Shown here: one piece after another, positions 16,658 through 29,498 of the stretch
How positions within the stretch are numbered: the stretch's first letter is position 1
Layout of the letters: every line of letters begins with the position of its first letter
Assembly (NCBI GenBank): GCA_050246315.1
Contig: JBFWWG010000004.1
Span: forward strand, 64,001-128,000
DNA length: 64,000 nucleotides
From: Nitrospiraceae bacterium
Lineage (GTDB): Bacteria > Nitrospirota > Nitrospiria > Nitrospirales > Nitrospiraceae
Direction: 5' to 3'
The notes under the pieces: generated by a model
Seen by the model: the letters and a program-made list of their open reading frames with translations, nothing else
The model's database searches: none
Told to the model about the DNA's origin: nothing
Program-made: the position numbers and the translations under genes

Positions 16658-18430
16658 CTAGAAGCTCTTGCCCTTCTTTCTATTCGCCCGCCGAGCCAGA
16701 ACCCACCCTTCCAGCACTACGACGCCGAGTCCGATCAACACCGGATAGATGTACGTTTCTTTCGGAATCGGCGGCTCGAGAATCGTATAATAGAAGGCCG
16801 ACACCGACATCTTCCTTCCGGCATCGCCGTTGTGCCCATCCCACGTGAAGAAGACAGTCGGAATATACTTACCAGCCTCAACATAGGCATATTCCTCGTA
16901 ATCATCCTTCCGCGGACGCTGCACCATCACTGTCCAGCGCCCATCCTTCCATTCCGACTTCAGAACCTTGAGCTTTTCCTCAAAATCATCCCGCTCTTCA
17001 AAATCCTGATCCCACCCGGTACCCTTGAAAGACCGGACAATGCCATCCGCTTCCCATTTCACGATATCCACCGGGTACTTGTTGTCACCCCAGAGATAGC
17101 GCGGCTTGGCGGGAGGCGGCAACTCTTGCCACTTGATGGGGAATTGGAAAGCAAACGCATCATTGAACGCCCGATAATTATTCTGGGCAGCGGCAATCGA
17201 ACCAGGCTCACCGGTCTTGGGAGCCTGCTCCTTCACCCCATAGGTATCGAGGTTCACCTCGGTCGGGTCCCACTCCGGTTTCTCCTGAGCCACGCTTTTC
17301 GTACGATCATCCCACTGGAACAAGAACACGATATTGTCGTTGTTGTACAGCGACTTGACCCAGACATCATCGATCCGGGTCACGAAATTCCGTGGCTTGT
17401 GAGTAATTTGACCACCAAGCGCCACAATCCGCCGCTCCCGGTTGGTCCACATTTCGCTTTCAGGATCATCCGAAATGTCTCCCTCCACCGGACCGGAGCG
17501 CACCACGAAATTGATCTTCGGCTTGTCCGTCAAGGGATCAATTTCAAGAGGATTGCCGTCCTTGTCTCGCTCACAGAGCGATTGGACAAAATTGGCGATA
17601 TCCCAGCGCTCCTCCAAGGTGGTGCTGTCTGCGAAGGAGGGCATTGGAGTCCCGTTGACCCCCGTCGAGAAGGTCCTAAAAATGTTCTTCACATTGTAAG
17701 GATCCTGGCGACTCCCGCGGAAATTCCAACACTTGTGCCAGTTGGCCGGTTGGATCGAAAATCCCCAGTCATCCTTCAGGTTGAAGGCGTTGCCATCGCC
17801 CCGACCGGTCACGCCATGGCACTCGATACACTTCTTATCGACCACCAACTGGGCGCCCTTCTCAATACTTTCCTTTGTTGAAGGGACCTGTTTGATCTCA
17901 CCCAATTGGAGAACGGTCTGCGTTTCAGTATCCTTATCCGTAAACTTCCGATCTTTGACCAATTGAGTCGTCACGAACGACAACACTTGCAGCCGTTGCT
18001 CCTCGGTCAAAATTCCTTCCCACGGAGGCATTGCGGATCCGGGCAATCCATGGGTCACAGTCTCGAACAGGTCGTTCTTGCCCGAGGCTTGCTCCTTGTA
18101 ATTGAACAGGGGTAACTCGCCGCTGGCCGTATGGCGAATCTTGAAGGTGCCCTGGTTGAAATTCCGCGGCCGAGGCCACAACCGATCCGCACCAGGGCCG
18201 TCCCCGGCACCGTCAACGCCATGGCACCAGACACATTTGGTAAAATAGACGCGCTTTCCAGCCTCAATCATCTCCGCTGGAGGCTCCGGAGCAAGCGCCT
18301 GGTTCTTGAACCCTTCAGGCGCAGCCTGCTCGGCATAGGCCGTTGTCACCGCGCTGCCGGAAAGCAGCACGAGTCCTGCCGTAGCGAGGCCGAGAAGGGC
18401 TTTGGAACGAGATCCATTCTGCATTGTCAT
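16658..18430 (-). CDS. Diheme cytochrome c fused to an ethylbenzene-dehydrogenase-gamma-like (EB_dh) domain; candidate NXR gamma-type subunit
   Basis: Signal peptide, CVWCH and CIECH, C-terminal EB_dh/DOMON-like region (FQWDDRT, NDAFAFQFP, WKDGRWTV, TWDGHNGD-x-GRKM), C-terminal TM anchor; start ATG 18430 with GAGGG RBS. Confidence 0.8.
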   Translation of the reverse strand: MTMQNGSRSKALLGLATAGLVLLSGSAVTTAYAEQAAPEGFKNQALAPEPPAEMIEAGKRVYFTKCVWCHGVDGAGDGPGADRLWPRPRNFNQGTFKIRHTASGELPLFNYKEQASGKNDLFETVTHGLPGSAMPPWEGILTEEQRLQVLSFVTTQLVKDRKFTDKDTETQTVLQLGEIKQVPSTKESIEKGAQLVVDKKCIECHGVTGRGDGNAFNLKDDWGFSIQPANWHKCWNFRGSRQDPYNVKNIFRTFSTGVNGTPMPSFADSTTLEERWDIANFVQSLCERDKDGNPLEIDPLTDKPKINFVVRSGPVEGDISDDPESEMWTNRERRIVALGGQITHKPRNFVTRIDDVWVKSLYNNDNIVFLFQWDDRTKSVAQEKPEWDPTEVNLDTYGVKEQAPKTGEPGSIAAAQNNYRAFNDAFAFQFPIKWQELPPPAKPRYLWGDNKYPVDIVKWEADGIVRSFKGTGWDQDFEERDDFEEKLKVLKSEWKDGRWTVMVQRPRKDDYEEYAYVEAGKYIPTVFFTWDGHNGDAGRKMSVSAFYYTILEPPIPKETYIYPVLIGLGVVVLEGWVLARRANRKKGKSF

Positions 18431-18462
18431 GGTTTGTCCCTCTTCGCCTTGCTCGTGAATAA

Positions 18463-19422
18463 TTAGTCCCACGTACGGGGGTAGTAACCCGTATGCCAGT
18501 ATTCAAACAGAATGACCTTCCAGATCTCATCCGTGGTCAAATGCTGCTCCCACGGCGGCATCACGGACGCCCACGGAAACCCCTCCGGTGGAAGACCAAT
18601 GCCACCCTTCGCCACGCGCCAGAATACGAAGGTTTCTTGAAGCTGTGCCAATGTCCCAGGATCGGTGAAATTGGCCGGAATGGGATTAAACGCGAAGGCA
18701 TGAAGGCCCCGCCCGTTCAAATTGTCACCGTGACAGAAATGACAATTCTGGAAGAAAATTTCACCGCCCTCGCGAACGTACTTGATGTAGCCTTGGGCAT
18801 TTGGATCCCACGGATTGGCCTCCGGCTTCTGCTGCATCAGCCGCCCCATGCTCTGCTCAGTGATGAGCTTTCTGGCAAACTCCTCATCAAACTTGCCATC
18901 GGTATTCACACGATACGGATTGTAGGCAGTTTGGAGTGTAAATGTCTTGCCATGAACCTTCGTATTCTGAGGCGGAGCCGGATGCACAGTCCGTAATTCA
19001 ATCGGCTCGTCCAGACTGGGGAGGAACGAATTATAGGCAAACCCACCGATAATAAGCGGCAAGGCCACCAGCCAGGCAGTGCGCAGAAGCTTGTGTAGAC
19101 CGGTGTTCGCATCCAACACGTTGAGAATCGGTTGCTTGAACTTTTTCCAATCCTCTTCGTTGCTGGACAGCCACATGAAAACCGCTACAAGTGCCGCGGT
19201 TCCATACATGGCCCTGACGCTGAACGGAATCGGCGGATAGATCCTGTACTTCAGGTACATCAGAAGGAAGACCCAAAACAGGATGCCCTGCCAAAACCGG
19301 GACATGGCGAGCCCGCTCTTGTTCAGCATGTAACTGAGAAGGGCAAACACGCCGACGCAGAAGGCGAGCTCAAAGATCATCTGCATCGGCATATACCCCT
19401 CGACCAACTTTAGCCAGGTCAT
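18463..19422 (-). CDS. Membrane-bound monoheme cytochrome c
   Basis: About 4 N-terminal TM helices, CHFCH, distal Met in SVMPPW. Confidence 0.9.
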   Translation of the reverse strand: MTWLKLVEGYMPMQMIFELAFCVGVFALLSYMLNKSGLAMSRFWQGILFWVFLLMYLKYRIYPPIPFSVRAMYGTAALVAVFMWLSSNEEDWKKFKQPILNVLDANTGLHKLLRTAWLVALPLIIGGFAYNSFLPSLDEPIELRTVHPAPPQNTKVHGKTFTLQTAYNPYRVNTDGKFDEEFARKLITEQSMGRLMQQKPEANPWDPNAQGYIKYVREGGEIFFQNCHFCHGDNLNGRGLHAFAFNPIPANFTDPGTLAQLQETFVFWRVAKGGIGLPPEGFPWASVMPPWEQHLTTDEIWKVILFEYWHTGYYPRTWD

Positions 19423-19455
19423 GATTCCACTCTCCTTCTTGGGCTCAAATGTTCC

Positions 19456-20766
19456 CTAGTTGATCTTCGGCGGCTCTTTTCCCGTCTGCACTTGCGAGAG
19501 GTAGTCGATGATCTTATTAATCGCTCCCGCGCTCAGCTTCTGGCCGAAAATCTTGGGCATCACGCCGTCTGCAAATGGCTTCACGACATAGGCGCTCGGG
19601 TTGATGACCGACTCCATGATGTATTCACGAGTCGTCTTTGCCCCTCCCTTGTAATCTGCGGACTTGATTCGAAGAGGAGCGTTGGTTCCCTCCTCAAGCT
19701 TCGGCCCTACGGCACCGGTCGCTCCTGGGATACCAGGAATTGTGTGGCACACGATGCACTGCCCCTTCGCAAAGATCTGGTCGACCGGCTCAGACCCATC
19801 GGCCAACAATCCACCCCCGCCCGCATCCTTCTTCTCTTCCTGCTGCGCGGGACGATCCGACTCCGGAATGAACTTTTCGTACGACTTCGCGATCTCATCG
19901 TACGAGGGTGCGTCCTTACCCTCCCGCACATACATCCAGGTATCGACGGCCGCCAACTCTCCGATCGAAAGTGAAATCGGCGGCTTATGAATCTTGGGCA
20001 TCGGGCTTTCCTTATCATTCGTACCCTTGACACCAAAGCCAGCCACTACAAAGCAGTTTGGACAAGCATGCGATTCAGCGATGTACTCTTGGCCTACTTC
20101 AGCAGTACCCGAGCCAGGGAAGGACTCCTTCTCGACCGTGTCTCTTTCAGCCGGCTTCCCCTTGTGATAACGCGGATCGTTCATGCGCTCGTCGAGCCGC
20201 CCCGGCAACCCCCACAAGTTCGGAGCACGCTCGCTGAGAAATCCTTGATTGAATCCATGACACAGAGGACACTGTCCTTTCCCGATCGCGCCTTGGACTT
20301 GGCTTTGTCCCACTCCGCCGAAAATGATCTTCTCTCCCTCATCTGCCAACTGCTGCGGACTCATCGAATTGAAATCCAACTTGACCTCGGGGGGAGGAAA
20401 CCCACCCTCGACTTGCGGGAGCCAATTGCCGTAGCCGGACAAGAACGCCGCCACAAAGAACATCATGCCGCCGATCTTGAACAACGCACTGAGATTGGCG
20501 AAATACAAACCCATCATCAGCGTCATGGCGGTAATCATCGCCAACGACACGGGGAGCAGTCGGCTTTCCGCGAAGAAATTGATCTTATAATTCGCGATTG
20601 CGAAAAAGAGCATCACGCTGGCAATCATGCCGATAAAGGTCTTAAACATTGCTCGCTTTTTCGCTTCAGGATCCGGGATAGCGACCTGGAAATACACCAG
20701 CAGGCCCACGAGCAATGCAAAGACTGGCCATCCCATGTCCAACGCAGCAGAAAATAAATTCCCCAC
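19456..20766 (-). CDS. Membrane-bound diheme cytochrome c
   Basis: About 4 N-terminal TM helices, CPLCH and CIVCH, SPMP and GVMP distal Met motifs, additional HACPNC; GTG start with AGGAGG RBS. Confidence 0.9.
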   Translation of the reverse strand: MGNLFSAALDMGWPVFALLVGLLVYFQVAIPDPEAKKRAMFKTFIGMIASVMLFFAIANYKINFFAESRLLPVSLAMITAMTLMMGLYFANLSALFKIGGMMFFVAAFLSGYGNWLPQVEGGFPPPEVKLDFNSMSPQQLADEGEKIIFGGVGQSQVQGAIGKGQCPLCHGFNQGFLSERAPNLWGLPGRLDERMNDPRYHKGKPAERDTVEKESFPGSGTAEVGQEYIAESHACPNCFVVAGFGVKGTNDKESPMPKIHKPPISLSIGELAAVDTWMYVREGKDAPSYDEIAKSYEKFIPESDRPAQQEEKKDAGGGGLLADGSEPVDQIFAKGQCIVCHTIPGIPGATGAVGPKLEEGTNAPLRIKSADYKGGAKTTREYIMESVINPSAYVVKPFADGVMPKIFGQKLSAGAINKIIDYLSQVQTGKEPPKIN

Positions 20767-20844: not shown

Positions 20845-22791
20845 TTAGTGGCCACCCACTGGCTGCGGGGCTCCTCCTGGAGCCGGGGCCTTTGCCTCAA
20901 CCGGCGCAGCCTTCTTTGTCAGTGACCCGACCCAAAAGACGAAAAGAATACTGATCCAGAAGAACAACACGTTGGCGGAGATCATGTTGGCACCAAACCC
21001 GACCGTATGCGTATAGGCCCACGGGGAGTTGTCACGCATGACCTCATTGACGTGCCAGAACAACCGGACGGACGAGCGGATATAACCCATCAGTCCCATC
21101 ATCCAGGTAAACGCTGTCGCCAACATGATCAGGGCATACTGAGAGCGCGCCGAGATCTTGCCCCACTCCACAGCCCCCATCTGCTTGGCCCCCTTAAGCA
21201 TGACGAGGTTGAGCGCCCCCATCATGAACAGACAGGACAGTGTCGTTGCGACCTGAGGAACTGATAGGCCGACTCGGACGTTGGCGGGAATGTAGTAACC
21301 GTACACGGCTAGCCAGACGATGTTGAAGTAGGCGAAGAAGAAAAACACCCCCATGAAGATGTTCCCGAACTTCGACCATGACACCGTGGAAACCTTGTTC
21401 CCCCGCTGGTACCAGATGAAACTCAGAACAGTAGTCGTAATAATGACGTTAATTCCCCCGTTCTTTGCGGACATGACCCCGTAGTTTCCCAATACGGGAT
21501 GCTGCTGACCGCCCATGGCCTTCAGCTCCGCGGGAGTCATCACCATGGTATGAGGGGTAATGAAAACGGTAAATCCCACGATCAGGAGAAACACCAAGTA
21601 TTTAATGTAGCGGAAGTACTTCTCGGCACCCCTCATCCGTCCCAGCGCCTGCCAGAGATAGTAATTGGTGCTCAAGAATAGGATCCCGATCATGGTTGCC
21701 TGGATGATGAACAACCAAGCCAGAAGACCTCCCATGAGTGTAATTCCCATCTGCTGCCGGTAGGCATACACTTCTCGCATCAGCCAATATCCAGCGAACG
21801 GCAACGGAATCAAGAACGCCACGCCGATCGCCATCGCGACATAGCCCATCCAGTCATAATGCGCACGGTCCTCGTCGGTCTTCGAAGAAAGGAATCGGTA
21901 AGCAGCATACGCCGCTACTACGCCTCCACCGAATGCCATATTGCCGAGGATACGGTGCAGATTGAGCGGGTTCCACAAAGCGGTGTGCAGGACGTGCCAG
22001 ATGTTCCCCAGGAACCGACCCTGCTCGTCAACTCCGGCCGGCGACATCATGAATCCGATCCACGAGTTGGCGAGGAACATAAGCACGGTCCCGATGACGT
22101 TCAAAATGACGGACATACTGAGGTGAATCCACTTGAGGAAACCCGTCTTCATCTTGTCCCAACCGTAGTAATAGATGTAGAGGGTTCCGCTCTCCGCCAC
22201 AAACATCAACGCATAGATATGCATGACGGGACGGAAAATGCTCGAAAGGTAACCAAAAAATGAAGGATAGAGTGTAAGAAATGTAAAGATCAGAATCCCA
22301 CCCAGGATGGCGGTCAGTGAGTAGGCGGTCAAACTGATCTTGATAAAGTCATAGGCCAATTGATCATACTTCTTGGCCATCGCCTTATCTTTCGATACCA
22401 CCCCCACGAACTCGATGATCATGCAGAAGATCGGCACCGCCAGCACGAAGCTGCCGTAGTAGAGATGTTGCTGATTCGCGAACCAGATCAACACCCGACT
22501 CTCAAAGTTGTACCGAGGGTAATCTTTCTCTCCATCAGTCGTCTTGGGCGCGGGAGGACCCGACACAATGCCCTCGACCTTGTAATAAACGTCACGACCC
22601 TTCTCAACCTTTGCCTCCTCCTTCTTATCGCCATCTTTCTTCGCCGCCACCTCGGGCGGAGGACCACCCGCCGCAGGTCCACCACCTCCGGCAAGAGCAG
22701 GAATCGAAGAGATGAGTGGCAGAAGAAGGAGGCCAACCATGGCGCCCAGCGCCATGATCGACAGAATTTTTTTTCGCACTACACTGCCCAT
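20845..22791 (-). CDS. Cytochrome bd subunit I-like (CydA-like, 'bd-like') oxidase subunit, paralog 1
   Basis: QQHLYYGSFVLAVP, ANSWIGFMMSPAG, NLHR, GYIRSSVRLFWHV; many TM helices; start ATG 22791 (AAGGAGG RBS). Confidence 0.85.
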   Translation of the reverse strand: MGSVVRKKILSIMALGAMVGLLLLPLISSIPALAGGGGPAAGGPPPEVAAKKDGDKKEEAKVEKGRDVYYKVEGIVSGPPAPKTTDGEKDYPRYNFESRVLIWFANQQHLYYGSFVLAVPIFCMIIEFVGVVSKDKAMAKKYDQLAYDFIKISLTAYSLTAILGGILIFTFLTLYPSFFGYLSSIFRPVMHIYALMFVAESGTLYIYYYGWDKMKTGFLKWIHLSMSVILNVIGTVLMFLANSWIGFMMSPAGVDEQGRFLGNIWHVLHTALWNPLNLHRILGNMAFGGGVVAAYAAYRFLSSKTDEDRAHYDWMGYVAMAIGVAFLIPLPFAGYWLMREVYAYRQQMGITLMGGLLAWLFIIQATMIGILFLSTNYYLWQALGRMRGAEKYFRYIKYLVFLLIVGFTVFITPHTMVMTPAELKAMGGQQHPVLGNYGVMSAKNGGINVIITTTVLSFIWYQRGNKVSTVSWSKFGNIFMGVFFFFAYFNIVWLAVYGYYIPANVRVGLSVPQVATTLSCLFMMGALNLVMLKGAKQMGAVEWGKISARSQYALIMLATAFTWMMGLMGYIRSSVRLFWHVNEVMRDNSPWAYTHTVGFGANMISANVLFFWISILFVFWVGSLTKKAAPVEAKAPAPGGAPQPVGGH

Positions 22792-22861: not shown

Positions 22862-23065
22862 TTAGTTGCGGAAGAGGTACCAGTAATCCAACCCCTGCAT
22901 GTCCATGAGATAGTGATCCACCAATGTGAAATAGGAGAGCGCAATGAGCACGGACACCACAACGGCGAAGACCGTATTGTTCAACAGTGCTTTGGACTTG
23001 GCTCCTACGAACAGAAGCACAAACCCCGCGATCAACGTCGCAAGCCAAAAGTATGGACTTGTCAT
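22862..23065 (-). CDS. Small two-TM membrane protein (67 aa)
   Basis: AGGAGG RBS, two hydrophobic helices, directly upstream of the CydA-like gene. Confidence 0.8.
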   Translation of the reverse strand: MTSPYFWLATLIAGFVLLFVGAKSKALLNNTVFAVVVSVLIALSYFTLVDHYLMDMQGLDYWYLFRN

Positions 23066-23156: not shown

Positions 23157-23279
23157 CTAACAGGGACATTGAATTCCGGCGAACCAATAAAAGAACCACA
23201 GACCTACGGCCATCGTGACATAGAAAATCATCTTCCCAAGCTTTATTTTCCACTCTGGATCTTGAGCAACTTCGGCCAT
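23157..23279 (-). CDS. Small single-TM protein (40 aa) ending in CPC
   Basis: Not in ORF track: MAEVAQDPEWKIKLGKMIFYVTMAVGLWFFYWFAGIQCPC*; GAGGAG RBS upstream; first ORF after the 23429-23457 promoter. Confidence 0.75.
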   Translation of the reverse strand: MAEVAQDPEWKIKLGKMIFYVTMAVGLWFFYWFAGIQCPC

Positions 23280-23398
23280 GGTTCACATCTCCTCTTCAAG
23301 TGATGGCTAACAGCTTTTCATCCTAAGGTTTTGCCTTGACACACCACGAGGCAAGTGCTAAGGGAATCACGCGATATTCATTCGGTAAGGGGAAACAA

Positions 23399-23506
23399 AT
23401 GGGTGAAAAAAGTTCAAAATTGTTTGACATTATAGTTTTGGCCGGCATGGTTGTCAATATCATTTTGGCCGTGTTTCTCATCCTCTACTACTTTGATATT
23501 CTGTGA
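23399..23506 (+). CDS. Small single-TM protein (35 aa), antisense to the FGE gene tail
   Basis: Not in ORF track: MGEKSSKLFDIIVLAGMVVNIILAVFLILYYFDIL*; AAGGGG RBS; TTGACA near 23337 upstream. Confidence 0.6.
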   Translation: MGEKSSKLFDIIVLAGMVVNIILAVFLILYYFDIL

Positions 23507-24412
23507 TTTTTCTACGCCTTTCCTTTCTTGATCGCCACCCCATTTTCCGTTGACGGCGCACCGAAATCCGATGGTCTCGTCCCTAAAGTCAGGGACCATT
23601 TTGTTCCGGCTCGTCAGCCTCAAGTCTCCCCCTGTCGTCGTATAACTACCCCCTCTGAGAACGCGGAACATGCCATACTCCGGGCTGGGAGGATTCTTCT
23701 CCTGCGAATCCTTGTAGGCGGTTTCCAGATACCAATCCGACACCCATTCCATCACATTGCCGGCTCCATCCATCACCCCATAGGGGCTACGATCTTCCTG
23801 AAATGATCCTGCCGGAGCCGTTACTTCAGCCCCATCCTGTATCCGAGCCCAATTGGCGCTTCCAGGTCGTTCGTCGTCCCCCCAGGGCCACAGCCGCCCG
23901 TCAGATCCACGCATGGCCTTTTCCCATTCCGCTTCGCTTGGGAGACGCTGACCTTTCCAGGCGCAATAGGCTTGTGCGTCGTCATAGGATACATAGACCA
24001 CCGGTTGGTTCGCGGAACGCATCCGCCCCATATTCTTGGCATAGCGGGAAGGCGGCCCAGCTTTTCGATGTCCGGCGGCTGCGACGAAAGCCTCGTATTG
24101 ATGGTTGGTGACTTCATATCGATCGATCGAGAAACCGTCCAGGAAGATTTCTCGCTGCGGCGCCTCATCAAAACCACCGTGATCATATCCACGAATGAAC
24201 GGGCCGGGAGGAATGTAGACCATGTCTTCCTTGATAGGTATCTCTCCCTGTCCCATGTCCTGAGAGGACCGTACTGAGGAAGAATGATCCGAGGGGCCTT
24301 CGACAGTTTCAAAAGGGGTCAAGGAAGTGCCGCGGAGAATCCCCATGATCGGAAGCCCGGCAAATACGAGAACCGCGATGAGTATCGCGACCTTGAATCT
24401 CGTTTCGAGCAT
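23414..24412 (-). CDS. Membrane-anchored FGE-sulfatase (SUMF1)-fold protein
   Basis: N-terminal TM, EVTN, RLPSEAEWEKA, GNVMEW, RGGSY, IGFRCA. Confidence 0.9.
   Translation of the reverse strand: MLETRFKVAILIAVLVFAGLPIMGILRGTSLTPFETVEGPSDHSSSVRSSQDMGQGEIPIKEDMVYIPPGPFIRGYDHGGFDEAPQREIFLDGFSIDRYEVTNHQYEAFVAAAGHRKAGPPSRYAKNMGRMRSANQPVVYVSYDDAQAYCAWKGQRLPSEAEWEKAMRGSDGRLWPWGDDERPGSANWARIQDGAEVTAPAGSFQEDRSPYGVMDGAGNVMEWVSDWYLETAYKDSQEKNPPSPEYGMFRVLRGGSYTTTGGDLRLTSRNKMVPDFRDETIGFRCAVNGKWGGDQERKGVEKSQNIKVVEDEKHGQNDIDNHAGQNYNVKQF
23429..23457 (-). promoter_or_regulatory. Perfect-consensus sigma70 promoter for the small-protein/CydA-like/cytochrome c/NxrC-like operon
   Basis: TTGACA (23457-23452), 17-nt spacer, TATAAT (23434-23429). 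Confidence 0.8.
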
Positions 24413-24442
24413 GATTCCACCCGAAGCGAAGTCGCCTCGGCC

Positions 24443-25366
24443 TTACGACTTCTGAGAACCGGCCGCTGACTTTTCTCCATCCTGCGCGCAGCGGAATCCG
24501 ATTGAACTGTCCGTTCTCCACATTTTGGCCTGAAAGCGTTTCGCAATCCGCGCTCCATGTGCCGTCTCTCTCCAAGACCCGCCGCGAATCACCTTATGCT
24601 CCCCTTCAGCAGGTCCTTGAGGATCTCGAAAGGGAGATTTTCCGTAGTAGTGTTCGTCATAGGTATCGGCCACCCACTCGGCCACGTTGCCGGTCATGTC
24701 GTAAAGCCCGTATGGACTTCGGCCCGCCTCAAATGAACCAGGAGGCGCAAGATACTTGAAGCCATCTTCGACTCCATCCAGATTGGCGCGGTGAGACCCA
24801 AATTCATCTCCCCATGGGTACCGGCGACGCCCTTCACCGCGAGCAGCCTTCTCCCACTCCGCTTCTGTCGGGAGACGCTTCCCCGCCCATTTGCAATAGG
24901 CGGCCGCATCTGGCCAGGACATTCCGATGGCCGGCAATTCCGGCTTGGTGATCTTCGCAATATCGTCCTCAAACACCGGAATGAAAGGTTTCCCGCGTTT
25001 CGTCATCTTGACGTATTGCTCGTACTCCCTTTGGGTGATCTCTTTTTGGTCGATGTAATAGGTACTCAGGTAGATCTGATGCTCCGGCCCCTCGTCCGGG
25101 TCGCCATCCATACTACCCATTCGGAACGGGCCTTCGGGGATTTGCACCATCTCGCGCCCATCTTCGCCGACCATTGTCTTGTACATCGAATAGTCCTGCG
25201 TGGAGACGGTCGGTACGACTTGCGCCTCCTCCTTCTTGAGCTGAGCCAGCGCTTCCTCGCGCGCTTTCTTGTTGTCATACGATTGACTCATCAGACCGAT
25301 AATCATCAGAAAGAATGACCCGAAGACAAAGATAATCGATCCGATCAGGACCTTGTTATTATCCAT
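24443..25366 (-). CDS. Membrane-anchored FGE-sulfatase (SUMF1)-fold protein
   Basis: N-terminal TM, RLPTEAEWEKAARG, DMTGNVAEW, RGGSW, IGFRCA. Confidence 0.9.
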   Translation of the reverse strand: MDNNKVLIGSIIFVFGSFFLMIIGLMSQSYDNKKAREEALAQLKKEEAQVVPTVSTQDYSMYKTMVGEDGREMVQIPEGPFRMGSMDGDPDEGPEHQIYLSTYYIDQKEITQREYEQYVKMTKRGKPFIPVFEDDIAKITKPELPAIGMSWPDAAAYCKWAGKRLPTEAEWEKAARGEGRRRYPWGDEFGSHRANLDGVEDGFKYLAPPGSFEAGRSPYGLYDMTGNVAEWVADTYDEHYYGKSPFRDPQGPAEGEHKVIRGGSWRETAHGARIAKRFQAKMWRTDSSIGFRCAQDGEKSAAGSQKS

Positions 25367-25424: not shown

Positions 25425-25784
25425 TCATCCATTCGGCGCCGGCGGCTCTGTTGAGGCCGCCTCTCGCTTCCGTTCAGCCCAGGCATCCAACAACATGGAA
25501 ATCTGCACACCCAGGAAACCGCCCATCGCGGCTCCCGCACCGGCCCCGACAGACATGCGGTCCGCACCGGCAACCAGCCACGCGAGAAGCCCGCCCAGCA
25601 GGCTACCGATCAGAATGCTCACGAGAAACCGCCGCCCGCCAAGCAGCCCCACAACAGTGCCCAACGCTACGCCGAGGCCGGCAGCGACCGGGAGGGACAC
25701 GTCTCCCATGTTGAGCCCGATCAGCACCCCCACCGTTCCCATCACGGTGATGCCCAGAACCACATCGATGATCTTTCCGCTCAC
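25425..25784 (-). CDS. Glycine-rich (glycine-zipper) membrane protein
   Basis: 119 aa, about 4 hydrophobic GxxxG-rich helices; co-oriented in the cluster. Confidence 0.75.
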   Translation of the reverse strand: MSGKIIDVVLGITVMGTVGVLIGLNMGDVSLPVAAGLGVALGTVVGLLGGRRFLVSILIGSLLGGLLAWLVAGADRMSVGAGAGAAMGGFLGVQISMLLDAWAERKREAASTEPPAPNG

Positions 25785-25829
25785 CGGGGACTCGCTTATT
25801 CACATTCGGTCGGCCACAGCCGAAGCCCC

Positions 25830-26504
25830 CTATCGGGCCTTGGCCACAATCGAGCCAAAATCAATCTCCACACCAGGACCGCTCAAAATCGAAATGCCCC
25901 AGGCCTTCGAGGCGGGCTCGTGTTCGTGAATCCGCTTGAAATCCTCGTAAACATTTACGGTTTCCTCGACCCATTCGCCGATGGGCTTCATTCCCGATTG
26001 GACCACGATCTCCGCGCCGCTGAACATGCTCCCTTCGCTCAGCATACCCTCCGCCTTGGTGGCGCTCCAGATATACTTTGTGAAGACGGGGATGAAAAAG
26101 AAATCGGTATCCAAAGACACGTACAATGTGGCGATGGACTCGGCCGTCGCCGGTGCCTTAACCAACCGCCAGCGCCAGGTCAACAGGGGATAGGCCTTGG
26201 GATCCCAATCGATTTTCTTCTTCTTGATACGCTGATCGGCGTCACGGGCGGCGAGAAATCCGGCGCCCTGTTCATCGTAGACCTTATACGCGCTTCTCGC
26301 TCGCGATTCACTGCGCTGACTCTCGTTTTCCCATAAGCTGGGGAACCCGTCTGCCTCCTTGGCCTGAAACGCTTCCAGAACCAGTTGATCGGCCGCGCGA
26401 CTCTCTCCGCCGGACACCAACCAGCCGACCATCCCTCCCAACAGGACCGCACTGAACAAGAGCGCGGGCTGCGGCCAAGCACATTCTGGCTTCATGTGTA
26501 CCAT
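25830..26504 (-). CDS. Exported protein, DUF3047-like
   Basis: Signal peptide, YPLLTWRWR, KYIWS, GEWVEETVNVYEDF; start moved to 26504 (AGAGG RBS). Confidence 0.7.
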   Translation of the reverse strand: MVHMKPECAWPQPALLFSAVLLGGMVGWLVSGGESRAADQLVLEAFQAKEADGFPSLWENESQRSESRARSAYKVYDEQGAGFLAARDADQRIKKKKIDWDPKAYPLLTWRWRLVKAPATAESIATLYVSLDTDFFFIPVFTKYIWSATKAEGMLSEGSMFSGAEIVVQSGMKPIGEWVEETVNVYEDFKRIHEHEPASKAWGISILSGPGVEIDFGSIVAKAR

Positions 26505-26526
26505 GACACCTCTATTGTGAGACTCA

Positions 26527-28392
26527 CTATGTTTCCTGAGACGGAGTCGGGACCCAAGCGGGAGACTTTTCGGAGGCCGCTGTTCGGTCCACAACCGCAG
26601 CCCCCCCCTTCTCACTCAACCAAAATACGAACAGCACCGCGGCCCAGAACACGACCATGTTGAGCGTCACGAATTTTGCCGCAAACCCCAGCGAGGGCGT
26701 GAACGCCCATGGCGACACGTCCGGCATCAACTCGCTGACGTGCCAGGCCAGACGGCCTGACGAACGGATGTAGCCCATCAGACCCATAACCCACGTGAAG
26801 GCCGCGGCAATGGCAAATAGCCCGACCATACCGCGATCCGTCATGCGGCCCCATTGAACGGGTCCGTGTGTCACCGCCCCTCGCAACATCGCTCGATTGA
26901 TCAGGGCACCTCCCAGCACAACAGTCAACGTCGTCAACGCCTGTGGACCCGACAAGGCCACCCGGAGACTGGCCGGGAGATAAAATCCATAGATCGACAG
27001 CCAGGTAATGTGTCCCATTCCCAGCAGGTAGAGCACCCCGATCGCCAGATTGCCTTTTCGCACCCAAGACACGGTGATAGTCCGGTTTGCACGGCGATAG
27101 AAGATGTAGCTCAGCCCGGTCAGGCAGATCATCAGATTCACCGCGCCGTTCTTGGCCGACATGACCCCATAGTTGCCGATGACCGGATGCTGGGCCCCAC
27201 CCATCGCCTTCAGCTCACCCGGCGACATCACCACCGTATGCGGCGTCAACCACACCATCACAACGATCATCAAGCCCCACACGAGGAATTGCGTATACTG
27301 CTGATACCGCTCCCCGCCTTTCAATCGCGCAAGACTTTGCCACAGATAGTAGTTGATGCCGAGGAACAGGGCGCCGATCAAGAGCGCCTGCACAACGAAC
27401 AGCCAGGTCAGCAGTCCACCCATCATCGTGACACCCATGCTCTGACGCCAGGCATACACAGACCGCATCAGCCAATACCCGGCAAACGGCATCGGCAACA
27501 ACGCACAGACCGTCACAAACAGAAAGATATAGCCGACCCAATCGTAGTAGGCGCGCTCTTGTGGGTCTTTGGTCGTGAGGAAGCGGTACGACGCATAGGC
27601 CAAAATGACCGCCCCACCCGACATGATGTCGGCCAGGAAGCGGTGGACGTTCAGCGGATTCCACAAAGCGGAATGCAACAGATGCCAGGCATTCCCGAGA
27701 TAGCGACCCTGGGCATCCACACCAGCCGGCGACATCATGAACGCCGCCCAAGAGTTCGCCAGCAATAACAAGGCACCGCCGAACACGTTGGTGACGAGCC
27801 CGATGGTGGCATGGATCCACTTCAACCAGGCCCCGGCGAGATGTTCCCAACTGTAGTAATACACGATCAATAGCAGCGCTTCTCCGGGAAACACGATCGC
27901 GTAGGCCGGCATCAGGGATTTGAAGGTGCCGCCCATGTACTGCATGAAGTGCGGATACAACAGGATGAACAGGGCCAGCATGACGCTCCCGACCAGCGCC
28001 GTTATGGACATCGCCAGCAGCGCGACCCGCGCCAAATCTTTGGCGAGCCGATCATATCTGTCGGACAGTGCCGAATCCCTCACCATCAACCCTAAAAATT
28101 CGATCAACACGCAAAAAATCGGAAGGGCCAGGACGAAGCCGCCAAAGTAGGTGTGTTGTTGCGTGACGAACCAGACGAGTACGCGACTGTCGACCGACGC
28201 GATGGTCGGGTAGGCGATTTCTTCCGCGGCAGGCGCCGGTGGTCCACTGGGCACTCCGGGGGTCTTAAAGAACACGTCTGCGGATTCGGTCGCGGCCGCC
28301 GACGGTTGGAACTCCGCACCGGCGGATGCGACGCCAGCGGCAAGGACGCTCCACAATACGAGTGCGCAGCGGATGAGCCTCGTGCCGTTCAT
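26527..28392 (-). CDS. CydA-like ('bd-like') oxidase subunit, paralog 2
   Basis: QQHTYFGGFVLALP, ANSWAAFMMSPAG, NVHR, GYIRSSGRLAWHV; colinear with paralog 1; ATG 28392 overlaps the upstream TGA. Confidence 0.85.
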   Translation of the reverse strand: MNGTRLIRCALVLWSVLAAGVASAGAEFQPSAAATESADVFFKTPGVPSGPPAPAAEEIAYPTIASVDSRVLVWFVTQQHTYFGGFVLALPIFCVLIEFLGLMVRDSALSDRYDRLAKDLARVALLAMSITALVGSVMLALFILLYPHFMQYMGGTFKSLMPAYAIVFPGEALLLIVYYYSWEHLAGAWLKWIHATIGLVTNVFGGALLLLANSWAAFMMSPAGVDAQGRYLGNAWHLLHSALWNPLNVHRFLADIMSGGAVILAYASYRFLTTKDPQERAYYDWVGYIFLFVTVCALLPMPFAGYWLMRSVYAWRQSMGVTMMGGLLTWLFVVQALLIGALFLGINYYLWQSLARLKGGERYQQYTQFLVWGLMIVVMVWLTPHTVVMSPGELKAMGGAQHPVIGNYGVMSAKNGAVNLMICLTGLSYIFYRRANRTITVSWVRKGNLAIGVLYLLGMGHITWLSIYGFYLPASLRVALSGPQALTTLTVVLGGALINRAMLRGAVTHGPVQWGRMTDRGMVGLFAIAAAFTWVMGLMGYIRSSGRLAWHVSELMPDVSPWAFTPSLGFAAKFVTLNMVVFWAAVLFVFWLSEKGGAAVVDRTAASEKSPAWVPTPSQET

Positions 28393-29498
28393 CGGACCTG
28401 CTCCATGGTCACGCCATGCACGGCCTGATGATCCTCCGGAACCTCCAAAGTCTGAGGCGGCAAGACGGCGCCTCCACCCGCGCCCATCTGTTTCGACAGC
28501 AATCCCGTGACAAAGGGGCAACGCAGTACGGCGGCTGGGACCATGCCCTGCACCCTTGTCTCGAATGACCGGCGCGCGCCCAAGAAATAGGAGTACAGCC
28601 CCATGAGGCCACCGACAGACCCAGCGACCATTGCGAACTGCCAGCCGGCATGAATGGGCCATCCCAAGGCGAAGACCGACAGGCCGTAGACCGCCAGAAA
28701 GTAGGTGGCCGCAAAAGCCAACCCCGGCCACCACCAGAATCTGGCCAGTTCCAGCCAGCCAGTGCGCCGCCACTGCGCCATCCAGTCGGATGATTCGTTC
28801 AATCCGGCGAGAAAGGCGGCGAGCGAGATCGAGCCGGCTGCAAGGGTCGCGACGAGCAGATGGACGAGCGCCGCCGAGTCCTCCGAACCTGTCGAGGCCA
28901 CGGCCAGCGCCAGCAGTCCCGTCGCGGCGGCACCGACAGCCGTCCACCCCATGAGCACGGCCGGCCGCTGCCACAACATTCCTCGCAGACTCGCCCCATT
29001 GGGAAACGTGAGAAACGAACGTCCCTGCGATTCCATCCGTCGAAGGTGGCCGATCTCAAACGCGTCACGGGCGACGGCCGTATTGGGGATGATGATCGCC
29101 ATCATAGCCGGCCCCTCCGGGTGAGTCAGGAAATCATAGTGCACCGCCACCTGCAAGAGAGCCAGCACCAGCAATGACAGTTGAACCGCGTACACAAATC
29201 CGATCCATCCAAGCAGCCAGATCCAGCGGCCTGGACGTTCGGCACGGGACAAGTCGGACCAGGCCACCCGCCGCCCGGCGGCATAACAGACTCCGGCGGT
29301 CACGATCCCCAGGCTCCCGCTCGTGGCCAGCAAGGGCACCGCCTCGGATAAGGGAACAACATGCGACAAGGCTCGATAGGCCGCAAAGATGACGAGCCCT
29401 GCCACGAACATCACGATCCGCTTCCTGGAGCGGACGGCCGGTTCCGTCACAGTCAGACTGAGTTGGGGCAGAACACGAAGCGCAAGGCGATGCAACAT
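28389..29498 (-). CDS. Polytopic membrane protein of unknown function
   Basis: 369 aa, about 8 hydrophobic segments; translationally coupled to CydA-like paralog 2. Confidence 0.8.
   Translation of the reverse strand: MLHRLALRVLPQLSLTVTEPAVRSRKRIVMFVAGLVIFAAYRALSHVVPLSEAVPLLATSGSLGIVTAGVCYAAGRRVAWSDLSRAERPGRWIWLLGWIGFVYAVQLSLLVLALLQVAVHYDFLTHPEGPAMMAIIIPNTAVARDAFEIGHLRRMESQGRSFLTFPNGASLRGMLWQRPAVLMGWTAVGAAATGLLALAVASTGSEDSAALVHLLVATLAAGSISLAAFLAGLNESSDWMAQWRRTGWLELARFWWWPGLAFAATYFLAVYGLSVFALGWPIHAGWQFAMVAGSVGGLMGLYSYFLGARRSFETRVQGMVPAAVLRCPFVTGLLSKQMGAGGGAVLPPQTLEVPEDHQAVHGVTMEQVR

Follow-up and report, generated by a model that had tools for sequence, protein, structure and literature searches.

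The locus

The DNA analysed here comprises 64,000 nt of a contig from a Nitrospiraceae bacterium; this whole stretch is called the window in the following. Close to position 23,400, a short hydrophobic reading frame on the + strand shares its DNA with a promoter sequence of the minus strand and with the 3' end of a minus-strand gene. These elements are:

23399-23506, + strand: small gene encoding a single-pass hydrophobic protein of 35 aa, plus stop codon (MGEKSSKLFDIIVLAGMVVNIILAVFLILYYFDIL)
23387-23392, + strand: SD-like sequence AAGGGG, 6 nt 5' of the ATG of the small gene
23457-23429, - strand: σ70-type promoter TTGACA-17-TATAAT, 12/12 consensus, within codons 11-20 of the small gene
23414-24412, - strand: FGE-like gene with a Pfam FGE-sulfatase domain (PF03781) at residues 62-286 of 332
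23414-23506, - strand: 3' extension of the FGE-like gene, 93 nt, antisense to the small gene

A first-pass annotation based on the letters of the window had reported the + strand ORF with its ribosome-binding site, its overlap with the last 93 nt of the FGE gene and the promoter on the minus strand. All three are present exactly where they had been placed, the promoter with a perfect match to the consensus.

Coding evidence for the small gene

All 116 loci compared, from the three Nitrospirales families f1, f2 and f3, carry the small ORF in intact form. One hundred of these loci originate from a DNA search of related genomes combined with a scan of one genome per species, with L001-L020 picked by DNA similarity and L021-L100 by protein similarity. 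The other 16, from f2 and f3, were obtained by a six-frame profile search. The DNA search matched 34 of 41 related genomes, and the best-conserved piece was the small ORF, with 84-91 % identity across genera and families, and not the FGE or oxidase genes. The scan confirmed 372 relatives out of 601 candidate stretches. Among the best 80 of these 372, the records are titled Nitrospira, Nitrospiraceae, Nitrospirales or Nitrospirota or are bins of nitrite oxidisers; N. moscoviensis NSP M-1 is included, with its orthologue of the micro-gene at NZ_CP011801 3444367-3444471. When 20 loci are aligned, conservation sets in just inside the start of the small ORF and ends at its stop, and the flanks cannot be aligned. 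In most relatives the micro-protein has 34 aa (35 aa in the window), and an SD-like tetramer is found at -4 to -16 in 71 of 91 unique upstream regions.

The stop codon always occupies the same column; in the first 100 loci, it is TAG in 44, TAA in 35 and TGA in 21 cases. On a 60-tip tree derived from the neighbouring bd-like gene, these switches require 19 parsimony steps, and a sense codon never appears. Codon differences from the consensus among 99 unique cores are synonymous in 598 and non-synonymous in 36 cases, and all six leucine codons are in use at Leu27 and likewise at Leu35. Fitch parsimony on the same tree yields 29, 3 and 182 steps for codon positions 1, 2 and 3, respectively, and 24 of the 35 micro-protein columns are invariant. 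The + strand ORF displays the properties of a protein-coding sequence: a conserved start and stop, a third-position bias and a large excess of synonymous over non-synonymous differences. Because the stop stays in place although its codon switches, the leucine codons are used in all six forms and synonymous differences prevail by 598 to 36, the small ORF is, judged by comparative sequence analysis, a real gene under strong purifying selection at the protein level. Coding on the minus strand of the conserved block can be ruled out: its three frames are closed by stops in 91, 101 and 101 of 101 unique sequences.

A scenario that the first-pass annotation had raised against its own reading is that AT-rich promoter DNA merely yields such an ORF as a by-product. 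The GC content of 0.36 at 23400-23499 in a genome with 0.597 would fit this, as would the absence of the micro-gene from the RefSeq table of N. moscoviensis. The comparative data rule it out: neither the fixed stop column nor the six-fold leucine codon usage and the synonymous excess is compatible with it, and the protein is also conserved in lineages that lack the promoter. The comparison proposed at the time, conservation of the 35-aa frame versus that of the FGE tail, clearly supports the earlier reading, since the frame is kept in 116 of 116 loci and the 93-nt tail in one of 115.

The tail of the FGE gene

As the Pfam domain covers residues 62-286 of 332, the last 46 residues of the FGE-like protein form a tail. 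The domain ends at GFRCA, and the C-terminal tail lies outside the family. Across 115 loci, the overlap between the FGE gene and the small gene ranges from -65 to +93 nt, with 93 nt in the window only. It amounts to at least 4 nt in 71 loci and is missing in 44, and frame and sequence of the tail differ between loci. In the three closest genomes, the last leucine codon of the micro-gene is CTA, which provides the antisense FGE stop codon TAG. The window has the synonymous CTG, read as CAG on the opposite strand. This silent change from CTA to CTG has extended the FGE gene by 29 codons, to a TGA opposite codon S6 (TCA). This means, a silent change in one gene can lengthen a gene on the opposite strand by 29 codons. 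Sequence comparison thus marks the overlapping tail as an accident of one lineage, as the first-pass annotation had suspected. Its phrase 'triple use' of the DNA was overstated: the small gene and the promoter hold up, whereas the FGE tail is not a third function.

The FGE-like gene is one of two tandem genes with FGE-sulfatase domains (23414-25366, - strand), each with an N-terminal hydrophobic anchor. Their NCBIfam matches (EgtB, SenA, GldK, PvdO) are all far under the cut-offs.

A perfect promoter embedded in the small gene

The -35 box TTGACA (23457-23452, - strand) and the -10 box TATAAT (23434-23429) are separated by a 17-nt spacer, i.e. within 17 ± 1 bp, and predict a transcription start site near 23422. 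Between 22000 and 26000 this is the sole 12/12 site, among 5 promoter-like sites compared to a shuffle mean of 2.5. On the + strand, the -10 box corresponds to codons I11-I12 (ATT ATA) of the small gene, and the -35 box comprises the third base of V18, all of V19 and the first two bases of N20.

The promoter is perfect in 116 of 116 loci of f1, f2 and f3, including 16 of 16 from f2 and f3, and the constraint on it goes beyond what coding requires. In 99 unique sequences, the silent third bases that lie in the hexamers are invariant (I11 ATT, I12 ATA, V18 GTT, V19 GTC); among the other degenerate codons, only 2 of 25 are (Fisher p 6e-4). On the 60-tip tree, the 12 hexamer columns show 0 parsimony steps, and nearby silent sites change often: A15 with 11 and G16 with 17 steps, both in the middle of the spacer, and N20 with 15 steps just outside the -35 box. 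Judged by these patterns, selection keeps both hexamers unchanged in three Nitrospirales families, silent codon positions included. A natural control is provided by f4, a family of the same order. Here, the protein reads ..FDTVVLAGLVVN.., no -10 box is left, promoter matches do not exceed 8/12, and the third bases of V18 and V19 differ among only four genomes of one genus. Likewise, f5, f7, f8 and f9 (7 loci) are devoid of the embedded promoter.

Perfect TTGACA-17-TATAAT sites are found four times in the whole genome, compared to 0.086 expected from base composition. Apart from the embedded site, they are located 23-29 nt upstream of the ORFs for lepA (EF4), rpsL (S12) and rpmH (L34):

C3:361018 (- strand), C5:234987 (+ strand) and C23:25332 (- strand), genome G000: the other perfect promoter sites, outside the window

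Since these sites precede lepA, rpsL and rpmH, the perfect consensus marks strong housekeeping promoters in this organism.

The hexamers might instead be frozen by needs of the + strand, such as codon choice, mRNA structure or translation, or serve as a regulator site and not as a promoter. This is improbable. It draws on the constraint that exists outside the hexamers: codons V13, L14 and I22 are also nearly invariant in f1. In f2, however, the spacer codons V13 (GTG) and L14 (CTG, CTA, TTA) vary, and the hexamers do not. The + strand mRNA shows no excess folding over shuffles (z +0.52), only 0.086 perfect matches with a 17-bp spacer would be expected in the genome by chance, and the three other perfect sites precede genes for the translation factor or ribosomal proteins named above. 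The near-frozen silent sites themselves, V13 and L14 (23435-23440) and I22 (23462-23464) with 0-1 parsimony steps in f1, may be due to a preferred spacer or UP-element sequence or to a site for protein binding.

The respiratory operon downstream

Transcription from the embedded promoter would enter the following region:

23280-23422, - strand: predicted 5' leader of the operon mRNA, 143 nt
23157-23279, - strand: 40-aa micro-ORF, first gene past the minus promoter and second conserved DNA block; ends ..WFAGIQCPC
22862-23065, - strand: 67-aa micro-ORF with conserved C-terminal motif ..DMQGLDYWYLFR; ends ..DMQGLDYWYLFRN
20845-22791, - strand: cytochrome bd-like oxidase (Pfam Cyt_bd_oxida_I); start set by homology
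19456-20766, - strand: cytochrome c
18463-19422, - strand: cytochrome c
16658-18472, - strand: dihaem cytochrome c with EB_dh domain, resembling an alternative NxrC
16658-20766, - strand: rest of the operon 3' of the bd-like oxidase, matching the cluster described in PMC6606698

The predicted leader cannot be aligned between genera, with the exception of the + strand promoter motif discussed below. It does not fold better than shuffled sequences (z +0.45), and an Rfam search of the leaders returned 0 matches at E <= 1. The motif of the 40-aa micro-ORF type is present in 87 of 107 loci and that of the 67-aa micro-ORF in 63 of 107; neither of the two has a Pfam or NCBIfam family.

The bd-like oxidase is the orthologue of bd-like_3 (NITMOv2_3643) of N. 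moscoviensis. According to the published study, the cluster, bd-like_3 with alt_NxrC_2, is within the 40 most transcribed genes of this species (Mundinger et al., 2019; PMC6606698). In the supplementary tables, bd-like_3 has an RPKM of 2645 (rank 37; supplementary Table 1) and the FGE gene just upstream (NITMOv2_3646) one of 217 (PMC6606698). There is no annotated gene between the two, as their RefSeq tags RS16745 and RS16750 are consecutive. This 12-fold rise across the orthologous site fits a strong promoter there; it also counts against hexamers that are frozen for other reasons than promoter function. The embedded promoter likely drives the bd-like_3/cytochrome c/NxrC-like respiratory operon.

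Further upstream on the same strand (25425-28974, - strand), the window contains a second bd-like oxidase gene, which probably corresponds to N. moscoviensis bd-like_4. The listed ORF has 815 aa, and its 5' end is probably over-extended. It is followed by genes for a DUF3047 protein and a 119-aa Gly/Ala-rich membrane ORF.

Distribution and possible role of the micro-protein

A profile search of 301 genomes of the phylum yielded a single match each in 83, of which 80 belong to the class of the window; the three matches outside this class are marginal (E 2e-4 to 4e-4). The micro-gene is present in 47 of 50 f1 genomes and in 24 of 24 f2 genomes. Diverged homologues exist in f4, f5, f7, f8 and f9, all of the same class, with F9, D10, G16, V18, N20, F26, L29 and Y30 invariant. 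In public databases, the micro-protein is named only 'hypothetical protein', with a 117-member cluster at 90 % identity. It has no Pfam or NCBIfam match at E <= 0.01, and in a search of the ESM Atlas all look-alikes score < 0.9.

Two FGE genes enclose the micro-gene in f5 and f7, where it is again encoded on the other strand and upstream of the genes for the bd-like oxidase and cytochrome c. A position upstream of the bd-like gene is also found in f8, and in f9 the context is different. Because this context is found in f5, f7 and f8, which have no embedded promoter, the link between micro-gene and cluster and the opposite orientation predate the promoter. The latter arises together with residues I11-I12, in f1-f3. 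The class-wide position in the cluster suggests that the micro-protein is a part or a helper of the FGE/bd-like/cytochrome c membrane complex.

In this respect, the micro-protein resembles CydX/AppX, CydS and CydH, the single-helix accessory subunits of cytochrome bd oxidases: it has about 35 aa and one hydrophobic helix, and its gene adjoins a bd-family oxidase gene in a conserved neighbourhood. In contrast to these, the micro-gene is encoded on the strand opposite to the oxidase, outside the oxidase operon and with its own promoter motif, so that it does not share their co-transcription. The missing Pfam/NCBIfam match also separates it from the CydX/YbgT-type families, and the bd-like_3 operon already begins with two other micro-ORFs.

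A facing promoter motif

Upstream of the small gene, a second promoter-like motif is directed towards the embedded promoter:

23336-23364, + strand: predicted small-gene promoter, TTGACA 23336-41, TGc 23356-58, TAAGGG 23359-64
23371-23422, both strands: predicted zone of complementary 5' transcript ends, deduced from the two promoter positions

The motif predicts a + strand start site near 23371; the first-pass annotation had placed it near 23370. Of 75 unique regions upstream of the small gene, 73 contain TTGACA-N14/15-TGnTA, as do 15 of 16 f2/f3 loci. The distance from its 5' end to the ATG is 63 nt in the window and 59-76 nt in all but two unique regions. Throughout the genome, the motif occurs 15 times compared to 3.1 expected, mostly shortly upstream of ORFs. 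The -10 part reads TAAGGG in the window and mostly TATTCA or TAATGA (TAWWSA) in relatives. As the usual final T is missing, the motif can only provisionally be regarded as an extended -10 promoter; it could instead be a protein-binding site. The first-pass annotation had also described a + strand TTGACA that forms an inverted pair with the -35 box. It is indeed present at 23424-23429; it is not conserved, because it needs TTT at F9, for which 64 of 85 unique relatives use TTC.

With start sites set 7 nt past each -10 box, the predicted overlap of the 5' ends is 44-62 nt in 88 unique loci, most commonly 51-54 nt and about 52 nt in the window. The sequence between the elements of the two promoters varies while this face-to-face spacing is kept. 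In the window, the zone covers the 5'UTR, the SD sequence, the start codon and the first eight codons of the small gene.

For the + strand transcript, no terminator was found; the only hairpin, at 23579-23596, is not conserved. It is terminator-like, with a T-rich run behind it, is part of the FGE coding sequence and is specific to the genome of the window. As a conserved terminator it was rejected: the FGE motif VPDFRD supplies both arms with its V-P and R-D codons, including the rare Arg codon AGG, and in 76 unique loci these codons vary freely without covariation.

Predicted interference between the two promoters

With a probability of about 60 %, the locus comprises a real micro-gene, an embedded promoter that likely drives the respiratory operon and a predicted interference of the two facing promoters. 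Transcriptional interference between them is plausible. Their predicted start sites are about 50 nt apart and oriented head-on. Polymerases from the stronger operon promoter would therefore be expected to pass over or hit those at the micro-gene promoter, and vice versa. The consensus operon promoter would dominate, and the micro-gene would be damped by polymerase traffic. In addition, the first ~50 nt of the operon mRNA could pair with the 5'UTR, the SD sequence and the start codon of the micro-gene. Transcription from the + strand promoter would in turn cross the operon promoter. As a result, expression of the micro-protein would be anti-correlated with, or damped relative to, that of the operon.

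Promoters facing each other over a short distance are known from scbA/scbR of Streptomyces coelicolor, the Ecl18kI restriction-modification genes and pR/pL of coliphage 186. For scbA and scbR, an overlap of 53 bp between the start sites was reported, and sitting-duck collisions, occlusion and 5' antisense pairing were proposed (PMC3134472). The predicted overlap here is about 52 nt, and the minus-strand start lies within the first codons of the micro-gene. However, the three known systems are switches under a known DNA-binding regulator, whereas none is known at the locus in the window. In contrast to scbA/scbR-type pairs, a gene of only 35 codons is paired here with a large respiratory operon, the operon promoter is written into the coding sequence of the small gene, and both promoters are predicted. 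Like other internal or antisense promoters in coding sequences, the hexamers constrain synonymous sites of the codons they cover. What sets the embedded promoter apart is that the constraint is perfect across three families (116 of 116 loci) and that the promoter, together with its upstream contact region, takes up almost the full length of the host gene.

It is possible, though not probable, that micro-gene and promoter are both real and their overlap is nothing but compact packing. Interference would then be negligible or of no regulatory use, and the micro-gene would simply be low-expressed beside a strong operon promoter. In f4, f5, f7 and f8, the micro-gene resides in the same cluster without the embedded promoter, and therefore the micro-protein can do without the overlap; moreover, no regulator or operator site was identified at the locus. 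Packing, however, does not explain why the face-to-face geometry is kept at 44-62 nt in 88 unique loci although the intervening sequence is free to vary. Furthermore, facing promoters at such a distance do interfere in studied cases (PMC3134472; PMC2760811).

Beyond the interference favoured here, a more far-reaching proposal, unlikely in its complete form, is that micro-gene and operon promoter constitute a hard-wired reciprocal switch. Firing of the operon would shut off the micro-protein by collisions and 5' antisense pairing. When the operon is idle, the micro-protein would be made and act on the membrane complex of the operon, be it as an alternative subunit, as a gate for assembly or as an inhibitor. 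If so, the main nitrite oxidisers would possess a built-in feedback on their electron transport chain in about 200 bp.

The arrangement is also reminiscent of type I toxin-antitoxin systems such as Hok/Sok and SymE/SymR: in these, too, a gene encodes a small hydrophobic peptide, and an antisense RNA started at a strong promoter in or beside the gene spans its ribosome-binding region. The micro-protein might accordingly be a toxin-like membrane peptide, and the operon transcript might silence its mRNA through the antisense 5' end. The single hydrophobic helix and the strong antisense promoter in the coding region, which would yield RNA complementary to SD sequence and start codon, agree with this very improbable reading. 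Yet, type I toxins are patchy, often multi-copy and fast-evolving, whereas the micro-gene occurs once per genome, keeps its syntenic place and hardly varies throughout the class. Moreover, the antisense partner is the leader of an operon mRNA and not a small RNA, and, as mentioned above, no Pfam or NCBIfam family is matched.

Novelty and significance

Nitrospira carries out most of the nitrite oxidation in soils, waters and treatment plants. To our knowledge, nothing is known about the control of its unusual bd-like respiratory complexes. The locus provides a predicted strong promoter for one of the most highly transcribed operons of Nitrospira and a previously uncharacterised, near-invariant micro-protein tied to the bd-like cluster. 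It is also a compact case of coding on one strand and a promoter on the other, in which the double constraint can be followed at single-base resolution over 116 loci.

A literature search on Nitrospira transcription start sites retrieved no study of such sites in Nitrospira, and no description of the micro-gene or of the embedded promoter was found among the papers retrieved on Nitrospira, bd-like or terminal oxidases and transcription. In two relevant papers, the words 'promoter', 'antisense' and 'hypothetical' (PMC6606698) and 'promoter', 'small protein', 'formylglycine' and 'sulfatase' (PMC12342949) have 0 occurrences each. The kind of system is known; the sources searched describe neither this form of it nor the micro-protein family.

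The micro-gene region in f4

In f4 (loci L128-L131), the region from about -85 to -30 relative to the ATG of the micro-gene contains TTGACT-N14-TGATA on the + strand in three of the four loci. On the minus strand, TTGAAT-17-TATCAT (9/12) is conserved in all four and has its ATGATA in common with the + strand motif. In these four genomes of one genus, this would suggest overlapping divergent promoters and not a face-to-face pair. In one of them, L130, the ~90 nt up to and including the start of the micro-gene consist of a ~29-nt unit with ATGGACAAAGGA, present three times in tandem; the ATGGACAAAGGA of the repeat unit corresponds to the first codons of the micro-gene.
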